Source: Vairimorpha necatrix
Lineage: Eukaryota
Assembly (NCBI GenBank): GCA_036630325.1
Contig: CP142737.1
Location: 496,001 to 560,000, forward strand
DNA length: 64,000 nucleotides
Direction: 5' to 3'
Positions 6,108 to 6,830 of this stretch are shown in pieces. The position numbers and the translations under genes are program-made. The notes beneath the pieces are model-generated. The model was not told where the DNA came from. It was given only the letters and a program-made list of their open reading frames with translations, and ran no database searches. Each line of letters opens with the position of its first letter. Position 1 is the first letter of the stretch.

Positions 6108-6830
6108 ATGAACCATAAAAGTAATAAATCTCAATATAGTAAAAATGCTATTTACAAACATCAAACAAATAATCTCATTGAGACGTACCTCCGCTTGGGG
6201 TACGTCAAGTTGAATTCAACGAGTGAAATCCCAAGCAAGGTGAAACTGTCGAAATACCAAGGGAAGCAGGCAGAAAAACTAAAAGGAAAATATATTACAT
6301 TTGAAACCAAAATAGAAGGTTTAGAACAAAGGTTCACTACAGATATCTATTACATTGAAGATATACGGACAATAGATATTATAGAATGGTTAAAAGAGAT
6401 CGAGAAAATCTCAGAAGAAAACCAATGGAAACCCAAACAGCTGATGATGGTAATAAGGAAAATGAGTAAAGACTCATTGATCGAGCAAGAGAGGATAGTG
6501 GAAGATTTTTTCTCCACACGCGATTATCTGATCGGTCTTAGATTTCCGATAGAACATAGCAGAAGCATATTAACAAAACTAGCTTCTATTAAACAATTAA
6601 GCTATGAAACCATCCAAGAATACATCCAAGAAATTAAAGAACTAGTTAACATTTATGCCGCAATTAATAAACTCTCAAAAACAGAGTTCAATAGGCGAGT
6701 AGAAGAGACTTTTTACAATGGACTTGGTCCATATACAGATGGAGAGCTTTTCAAGCATGAATTTAAAGACTATAAAGATGCAATTAGATTTCTTTACACG
6801 TTAGAAAGGAAAATTTTATCTAAAAAGTAA
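6108..6830 (+). CDS. Gag of G1 (starts inside 5' LTR; continues in -1 frame to knuckle and protease)
   Basis: Gag-like FYNGL motif; knuckle and protease motifs at 6900-7130. Confidence 0.75.
   Translation: MNHKSNKSQYSKNAIYKHQTNNLIETYLRLGYVKLNSTSEIPSKVKLSKYQGKQAEKLKGKYITFETKIEGLEQRFTTDIYYIEDIRTIDIIEWLKEIEKISEENQWKPKQLMMVIRKMSKDSLIEQERIVEDFFSTRDYLIGLRFPIEHSRSILTKLASIKQLSYETIQEYIQEIKELVNIYAAINKLSKTEFNRRVEETFYNGLGPYTDGELFKHEFKDYKDAIRFLYTLERKILSKK

Follow-up and report, generated by a model that had tools for sequence, protein, structure and literature searches.

The 64,000-nt stretch of Vairimorpha necatrix DNA analyzed here (contig CP142737.1, positions 496,001 to 560,000), referred to below as the window, has a base composition of 33% G+C and is occupied by transposable elements over nearly its whole length, while no tRNA genes were found within the 64 kb by ARAGORN. 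Five long terminal repeat (LTR) retrotransposons in it, numbered G1 to G5, possess a perfect self-complementary stretch of 12-18 nt at the position of the tRNA primer-binding site (PBS), and this was the case in 5/5 elements. All five palindromes were located where the original prediction had placed them, with that of G5 proving longer than claimed (18 nt). As had also been stated there, no site begins with TGG (0/5), and the same was found for three related loci from other assemblies that are described below (L001, L066, and L067).

The palindrome starts ~0-2 nt past the CA of the 5' LTR in G1-G4, and its start in G5 is ambiguous by 2 nt. According to the earlier claim, the dyad center lies 7 nt from the LTR end in every element, which stands for G1-G4 (+7) but changes to +5 in G5 if the LTR end that gives a perfect target-site duplication (TSD) is used. 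The core TGAnnTCA is common to all palindromes, and the exact cores TTGAATTCAA (three matches) and TGAGCTCA (two matches) occur window-wide only at the five junctions. Palindromes of at least 12 nt number 47 in the window (~7e-4 per position, or ~1 per 1400 bases), compared with 28.7 +/- 5.4 expected, and their presence at 5/5 junctions is far beyond chance, even with only two or three independent lineages. Two solo LTRs, belonging to the G1 and G4 families, served as negative controls; both lack the palindrome, indicating that it is internal sequence and part of neither the LTR nor the target. Among the variant positions listed from contigs of four sequencing runs, none falls at the palindromes. 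In G5, a second, imperfect copy of the palindrome was also identified 4 nt downstream.

The limits of the elements were set from LTR pairs, detected by self-BLAST, together with inspection of their ends and TSDs, and LTR pairs with short TSDs were found for all five elements (Table 1). The two TSD copies of G2 match at 4/5 positions (GAGCT versus GAGCC), and the limits of this element are confirmed by an empty-site joint, 15148->19846, in contigs of the sequencing runs X1 and X2. A perfect match of the G5 TSD, CCTCT, needs an LTR end 2 nt further on, and the 5' LTR of G4 is interrupted at ~25130-26319 by a ~1.2-kb inverted-repeat element. A purine-rich tract lies upstream of every 3' LTR, from which the remaining replication signals of the elements look canonical.

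Table 1. Positions of the LTRs, junction palindromes, and open reading frames (ORFs) of G1 to G5, and of two solo LTRs, in the window
Feature	Position	Strand	Remarks
G1 5' LTR	5953-6207	+	TG...CA; 255 bp; pair with 8025-8279, 99.6% identity; TSD CATAT
G1 gag ORF	6108-6830	+	240 aa; start codon within LTR; palindrome read through
G1 palindrome GTTGAATTCAAC	6209-6220	+	1 nt past LTR CA; codes K-L-N-S-T
G1 3' LTR	8025-8279	+	purine-rich tract just upstream
G2 5' LTR	15149-15329	+	~181 bp; pair with 19660-19840, 96% identity; TSD GAGCT/GAGCC
G2 palindrome ATTGAATTCAAT	15331-15342	+	R-L-N-S-I in gag frame; G2 frameshifted farther along
G2 3' LTR	19660-19840	+	LTR pair, TSD, empty-site joint
G3 3' LTR	21463-21704	-	LTR pair and TSD
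G3 ORF	22178-24217	-	679 aa: gag, aspartic protease, integrase; without reverse transcriptase (Pfam)
G3 palindrome ATTGAATTCAAT	24096-24107	-	R-L-N-S-I
G3 5' LTR	24109-24350	-	pair with 21463-21704, 99.2% identity; TSD AGAAC
G4 3' LTR	19957-20311	-	TSD CATTA also in 5' flank at ~26637
G4 palindrome ATTTGAGCTCAAAT	25078-25091	-	abuts LTR CA; N-L-S-S-N
G4 5' LTR, final ~38 nt	25092-25129	-	remainder ~26320-26637
G5 5' LTR	59223-59476	+	end possibly 59478; pair with 60921-61174, 99.6% identity
G5 gag-like ORF	59338-60900	+	520 aa; ATG at 59338 within 5' LTR
G5 palindrome CATAATGAGCTCATTATG	59475-59492	+	18 nt including LTR CA; core 59477-59490; I-M-S-S-L
G5 3' LTR	60921-61174	+	LTR pair and TSD
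Solo LTR, G1 family	17825-18078	-	TSD ATTTT; no adjoining palindrome; negative control
Solo LTR, G4 family	38695-39047	-	TSD AATAT; no adjoining palindrome; negative control

Internal deletions are present in all five elements. The Pfam domains retained are aspartic protease, Integrase_H2C2, and rve in G3, and RT_RNaseH, H2C2, and rve in G2, while full-length relatives of 1200-1300 aa are alignable across reverse transcriptase (RT), RNase H (RH), and integrase (IN). Integrase is encoded after RNase H and the domains detected with Pfam are of gypsy type, which assigns the elements to Ty3/gypsy. The nearest protein to the G3 polyprotein is from Vairimorpha necatrix (76% identity across 27% of the query), followed by one from Dictyocoela muelleri. 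The LTR copies of G1, G3, and G5 are 99.2-99.6% identical and RT is absent from these elements, indicating recent mobilization in trans with the 5' region retained.

The gag frame of all five elements crosses the palindrome in one common frame. The five had earlier been listed as separate families with otherwise dissimilar LTRs; they are not unrelated, because their gag proteins are homologous (pairwise identity 24-33%) and the LTRs of G2-G5 share the start TGTGGTAT; the LTR of G1 starts with TGTGATGA. The gag start codon is located in the 5' LTR, ~45-50 nt past a TATA-like box (5953-6207, 15149-15329, 24109-24350, and 59223-59476), with the ATG of G3 gag, for example, at 24217. The repeat (R) and unique 5' (U5) regions of the LTR thereby encode a conserved gag N-terminus, with a motif like I-L-E-x-Y-F-x-x-G, and the identical sequence has no coding role in the 3' LTR.

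Covariation across the palindrome in DNA and in gag peptides

Sixty-nine loci were obtained by scanning metagenome and prokaryote-genome contigs with a pol alignment. Gag of the present family was clear only in L001 and L066 among these 69 and weaker in L067 and L012, while three loci with faint gag (L055, L059, and L063) were left out of the counts. L001 carries a perfect 12-nt palindrome 1 nt past a CA, which codes for I-M-N-S-F, and L066 carries TATGACGTCATA, which codes for I-M-T-S-Y. In L067, a 16-nt palindrome, TAATTGATATCAATTA, immediately follows the inferred LTR end; since it precedes the start codon, it is kept without coding constraint. These loci show that retention of the palindrome is seen in coding sequence and, in L067, in non-coding sequence as well. 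A 14-nt palindrome in L059 was set aside, because it lies inside a longer ORF and is not kept in its relative L063.

Three of these loci (L066, L067, and L069) and the protein P0049 are filed under bacterial metagenome-assembled genomes (MAGs; Clostridium, Cyclobacteriaceae, Sedimenticola, and Aeromonas) and encode eukaryotic Ty3/gypsy elements; the contigs are probably binning contaminants. The gag of L066, L067, and P0049 is of the microsporidian-type family, and L066 and L067 were assembled as circles with one LTR. No relatives were found in viral contigs, either with the DNA pattern (0 matches) or in the protein scan, and a metagenome scan with an alignment of G1 and G3 gag gave 547 pattern matches and 0 relatives.

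A DNA alignment centered on the dyad was built from the five window junctions and then extended with L001, L066, and L067 (n = 8). In the five window junctions alone, the six inner pairs are paired in 30/30 cells, with two-sided changes at three pairs. In the alignment of eight, they are paired in 48/48 cells with none unpaired, and double substitutions occur at three inner pairs, the central pair among them, which upholds the earlier claim of compensatory substitution. The central pair is AT in four sequences, GC in two, CG in one, and TA in one; pair 5 is UA in five and AU in three; and pair 6 is AU in five, UA in two, and GC in one. The bases of TGA...TCA are invariant (8/8 DNA sequences). 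The covariation score was reached by 0/500 shuffles, and the signal was lost when the partner was slid by 1-3 columns. The observation is therefore confirmed and extends past this window. The conserved feature is self-complementarity itself, kept by compensatory change including the center, which points to the pairing of two like strands. No other conserved motif after the LTR was found in the eight aligned elements.

Since the site lies inside gag, the protein sequence also records the base-pair covariation. A profile built from gag of G1-G5 retrieved 383 representative proteins at 50% clustering, of which the best 150 were used; 83 of these reach the N-terminal site, while the other 67 are fragments too short there and were left out. 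Twenty relatives were looked up: six are from Vairimorpha necatrix or Nosema granulosis, 12 from metagenomes or read assemblies, and one from a bacterial-MAG contig, while one carries only the product name 'ribonuclease HI'. Residues were counted in the MAFFT-aligned block at the palindrome position, a census of unaligned tripeptides being too noisy. The tripeptides in the 83 relatives include LNS (24), LSS (10), MNS (9), LIS (7), LSL (4), and MIS (3). The central residue is N in 42, S in 20, I in 10, and T in three (75/83), whereas K occurs once and R and M do not occur. N, S, I, and T are chemically mixed, but no other residue has a codon in which A is joined to a self-complementary dinucleotide (AAT, AGC, ATA, and ACG); codons starting with A exist for K, R, and M too, and these residues are frequent in the same proteins. 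The ACG codon predicted in this way for a central T was confirmed in the DNA of L066.

In 68/83 relatives, the pentapeptide is compatible with an in-frame palindrome of 12 nt or longer, compared with 3.6% of 41,855 control windows taken from these proteins. The codons at the first residue are TTG for L and ATG for M, and the residue after the serine varies with them: I, M, T, N, or K follows L-x-S 34 times, with no occurrence of F, Y, C, or W, while after M-x-S the corresponding counts are 1 and 7 (Fisher 3e-7, shared descent ignored). As I, M, T, N, and K all have A-starting codons, this link can be read as the amino-acid shadow of a T-A versus an A-T pair. The original prediction had named a peptide kept with non-palindromic codons as evidence that would count against it; the opposite was seen, as the peptides vary in palindrome-compatible ways.

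These peptides bear on two explanations that involve no RNA pairing. The palindrome could simply result from conservation of the gag peptide [L/M]-[N/S]-S, as its same-frame coding in G1-G5 and most of their relatives might suggest. However, the flanking residues shift non-conservatively with pairing kept (e.g., I-M-S-S-L versus N-L-S-S-N), the central residues are chemically mixed and coherent only in their codons, and the 16-nt palindrome of L067 lies outside the ORF, so that this explanation is almost certainly wrong. Alternatively, the palindrome could be a DNA-level site for a dimeric factor, because TGAnnTCA resembles pairs of bZIP half-sites, its TGA...TCA bases are invariant in 8/8 DNA sequences, and the site is located downstream of the putative LTR promoter; TGACGTCA in L066 is the classic CRE sequence. 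Independent half-sites, however, impose neither a self-complementary center nor covariation of the flanks, and they would not account for the covariation of L/M with the post-serine residue. In addition, all four self-complementary centers are in use, so no base identity is read there, and K, R, and M make up 5/16 of the A-starting codons, yet are central in 1/83 relatives. A dimeric factor is thus considered very unlikely.

Pairing partners and a model for priming

The self-duplex of the site is predicted at -13 to -19.3 kcal/mol, versus -5.4 to -7.8 kcal/mol for its best duplex with the element's own LTR. A complement of the site in the 5' region of the element's mRNA, which had been named beforehand as a finding that would speak against the prediction, does not exist in the window elements according to these duplex energies. 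A Tf1-type complement in the LTR was likewise rejected, as the LTR duplexes are weak in the window elements, L066, and L067, with L001 having an imperfect match in its unique 3' (U3) region. This U3 stretch lies at 228-239 of L001 (GATGAGTTCA), with nothing comparable observed in the window elements. Partners in the rest of the element were rejected because the best duplexes there reach only -8.6 to -10.0 kcal/mol (G1-G3 and G5 scanned), and a tRNA 3'-end complement because no site starts with TGG. A simple monomeric hairpin was rejected as well, since it would leave the central four bases unpaired, whereas a constraint acts on the central pair. For 100-nt leaders, homodimers are predicted to be more favorable than two monomers by 11.8-16.5 kcal/mol, while in the minimum-energy folds, which cover few sequences, the palindrome is in a U5-leader stem in G1 and G3 and in other folds in G2, G4, and G5.

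Priming in cis by a hairpin was considered as a further alternative, in which the palindrome pairs with a downstream near-copy on one RNA that is cut behind the downstream arm. This is what G5 would offer, where the imperfect copy is paired with the palindrome in the minimum-energy fold, and a comparable pair, CHSeq1/CHSeq2, is described for the fungal GalEa elements in section 10 of PMC5445492. However, such a downstream partner is present only in G5 among the four elements scanned (G1-G3 and G5), where it is weak (-10.0 versus -18.1 kcal/mol for the self-duplex), and the best sites elsewhere in G1-G3 are weak and distant. Moreover, a partner in cis does not demand palindromy through the center, and we regard this alternative as improbable.

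Host RNAs were also weighed as partners. Internal fragments of tRNAs serve as primers in copia- or Ty5-type priming, and tRNA hairpins carry 7-nt loops. The site could be complementary to such a fragment or to another host RNA, and internal tRNA priming is indeed described in other elements, e.g., FunCo1, in the passages of PMC5445492 that deal with priming. A fixed host RNA is argued against, because at least eight different palindromes exist and both halves change together. Each of these at least eight DNA palindromes, with more implied by the peptides, would need its own host RNA with a perfect palindrome of 12-16 nt, for which the 7-nt loops of tRNA hairpins leave no room without interruption, and the covariation implies a partner that co-evolves with the site. 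A host RNA is accordingly a remote candidate.

The reading that we prefer, and to which we give about an even chance, is that the palindrome may be the functional PBS of a tRNA-independent microsporidian Ty3/gypsy clade, comprising the Nosema/Vairimorpha elements and their relatives, in which two genomic RNAs would pair at the site and one would be cut to serve as the primer. The site occupies the U5 boundary, where minus-strand synthesis must start. Because the LTR boundary marks this start, the 3' end of the primer must pair with the first bases of the palindrome, and a primer that pairs there would itself end in palindrome sequence; as the genomic RNA is the only RNA known to carry this sequence, a second copy of it would be the partner. 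In this model, a 12-18 bp duplex would form between two genomic RNAs at the palindrome, and one strand would be cut where the duplex ends on the 3' side, the likely nuclease being the element's RNase H, as in Tf1; the original prediction had put this cut at about +13/+14. The new 3'-OH, lying opposite the partner's first post-U5 base, could then prime minus-strand strong-stop DNA, so that the 5' leader of the cut RNA would act as primer on the partner RNA, and dimer linkage and priming would share one site.

The same pairing could also serve dimer linkage or packaging only, as in the retroviral dimerization initiation site, with another primer being used. The covariation at the center and the predicted homodimers speak for pairing and not for priming, and palindromic dimerization sites are known in retroviruses, as discussed in part of PMC5445492. 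On the other hand, the eight aligned elements share no further conserved sequence after the LTR and none starts with TGG, the LTR boundary fixes the primer end at the palindrome, and the retroviral palindrome lies in a hairpin loop and is additional to a PBS, according to the discussion in PMC5445492. A role restricted to dimerization is therefore unlikely, though to be taken seriously.

Several points weigh against priming by paired genomic RNAs. The original prediction of two genomic RNAs as the primer system gains from the position of the site in the PBS slot and from the covariation, which points to the pairing of like strands, while beyond that pairing we infer every step, namely the dimer, the cut, and the primer. 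With both RNAs cut, the second strand transfer would lack an intact site, and the model thus calls for asymmetric cutting or for particles that contain more than two RNAs. A host tRNA partner is argued against by covariation and tRNA geometry, and not by host tRNA sequences. In L001, the U3 stretch could form a duplex with the site that is nearly as stable as the self-duplex (-10.5 versus -10.8 kcal/mol, with G-U pairs), and L012, a partial and possibly decayed relative, retains no more than GAATTC where the palindrome is expected. For L001, L066, and L067, the LTR ends were deduced from the purine tract and terminal inverted repeats, because each contig holds a single LTR copy. Regarding the peptides, the Fisher test ignores shared descent; L and M interchange at least 11 times on a weakly supported tree of 51 rows, and independent pairs on supported branches number only three (two concordant, none discordant, and one tie; p = 0.5).

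The fuller version of the model, in which PBS and dimer-linkage site are merged and co-packaged genomes would prime each other reciprocally in trans after an RNase H-type cut and with no host RNA, is proposed tentatively, as its probability falls somewhat short of even.

Other repeats in the window

The ~1.2-kb element within the 5' LTR of G4 (25130-26319) has terminal inverted repeats, starts with GGGTTAAATTGCGATGTTACC followed by a run of C, and is flanked by duplicated CTTTCTTG. Diverged copies were found at ~47525-48514, 32580-33373, 58350-58738, and 61775-62258, and the element is probably a non-autonomous DNA transposon. In addition, a G+C-rich inverted repeat of ~32 nt (52181-52212 and 53951-53985), conspicuous in a window of such low G+C content, contains a 16-nt palindrome, GGGCGCACGTGCGCCC, in each arm, and its arms enclose ~1.75 kb with an integrase-like ORF on the minus strand (52921-53739).

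Non-LTR retrotransposon copies are present at 3094-5139, 10807-14502, and 28981-30219; they encode an endonuclease/exonuclease/phosphatase domain and an RVT_1 reverse transcriptase and are mutually 84% identical over 2.3 kb. A unit of ~515 bp, both tandem and dispersed, adjoins the non-LTR elements (1819-3193, 5221-5550, 14577-14877, and 45191-45869) and possibly represents their 3' or 5' ends.

A sixth LTR-type element, G6, has repeats at 33973-34250 and 42848-43110 that are ~90% identical and whose ends are not TG...CA. Its 5' repeat, ending in ...GTATT, is followed by TGGAGCTTTGATAC, a plausible PBS of tRNA type; this is compatible with the ordinary TGG PBS that had been ascribed to G6.

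Comparison with known systems

To our knowledge, only two priming solutions are established for LTR retroelements, i.e., host tRNAs and the Tf1-type primer, for which the element uses the 5' end of its mRNA. Haag et al. reportedly described in 2000 that Tf1 priming can occur in trans between co-packaged RNAs. The mechanism proposed here comes closest to self-priming of the Tf1 type. The present elements resemble Tf1 in having no tRNA PBS and, if the preferred reading is true, in deriving the primer from their own RNA. They differ in that the Tf1 PBS is non-palindromic and has the LTR-encoded mRNA 5' end as its partner, whereas the site described here pairs only with itself. In Tf1-type priming, as described in the relevant passages of PMC4600332, a duplex of ~11 bp forms between the PBS and the element's own RNA, and cleavage aided by RNase H yields the self-primer. 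Self-priming of the Tf1/Tf2/Tj1 type has also been proposed for Maggy, Skippy, Cft-1, Boty, and sushi (PMC6934838).

A likeness is also found in the fungal GalEa Copia elements, which lack a PBS and carry a 10-nt palindrome, including the last A of the LTR, that was named the 'Conserved Hairpin Site' (Donnart 2017, PMC5445492). According to the sections of that paper that deal with the site, its center is a variable self-complementary dinucleotide (AT or TC-GA types), no complement is present in U5, a second conserved, inverse-complementary box lies 12-41 nt downstream, and the authors fit the site to no known model. Both groups thus share a palindrome instead of a PBS and a variable self-complementary center. 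Unlike GalEa, which belongs to the superfamily Copia and occurs in Pezizomycotina, the present elements are of gypsy type and microsporidian; their palindromes are longer and coding, whereas the 10-nt palindrome is not described as coding in those sections. The last LTR base is part of the GalEa palindrome, and here G5 includes the CA, but the palindromes of G1-G4, L001, and L066 start 1-2 nt past it. A counterpart of the downstream box as described for GalEa is present here only in G5, where it is imperfect, and was found in none of G1-G3. The original prediction knew of no such mechanism in the literature, which needs correction in part, as the palindrome in the place of a PBS (PMC5445492) and the duplex cleavage of Tf1 type (PMC4600332), as presented in the passages cited, are precedents.

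A likeness to retroviruses lies in a short palindrome that lets two genomic RNAs pair. The dimerization initiation site of HIV-1 is the palindrome in the loop of SL1. The retroviral palindrome is situated in a hairpin loop beside the tRNA PBS, whereas here the palindrome is itself at the PBS position and a separate PBS is lacking. With the tRNA-primed Ty3/gypsy relatives, the elements share LTR ends of the form TGTGGT...CA, 5-bp TSDs, and the gag-PR-RT-RH-IN domains (PR, protease), which are here only in pieces. Six complete loci from two other pol-related families (L014/L036 and L019/L022/L043/L044) have ordinary TGG sites 2 nt past the CA, which are absent in the window five; these loci came from the same scan as L001, L066, and L067 and served as a positive control. 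In the literature searched, no description of the PBS or of priming in microsporidian LTR elements was found; a study of the Nbr elements of Nosema bombycis, said to have been published by Xu et al. in 2006, may describe their PBS.

Taken together, the comparison suggests that these elements may be a further PBS-less, self-primed type of LTR element, with unusually strong comparative evidence for an intermolecular duplex. They provide a second case of a PBS-less LTR element, independent of GalEa and set in a large family (383 gag relatives at 50% clustering), as well as a textbook example of an RNA pairing constraint that is readable in an amino-acid alignment. Automated annotation of LTR elements will overlook or misassign such elements in microsporidian genomes if a tRNA PBS is a requirement. 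LTR retroelements rely on a particular host RNA at few steps, of which priming is one, and the question of what primes these elements becomes directly testable. If priming by two paired genomic RNAs is true, the same logic may explain the palindromic site of the fungal GalEa Copia elements, and the two would represent a convergent third way of priming LTR retroelements.

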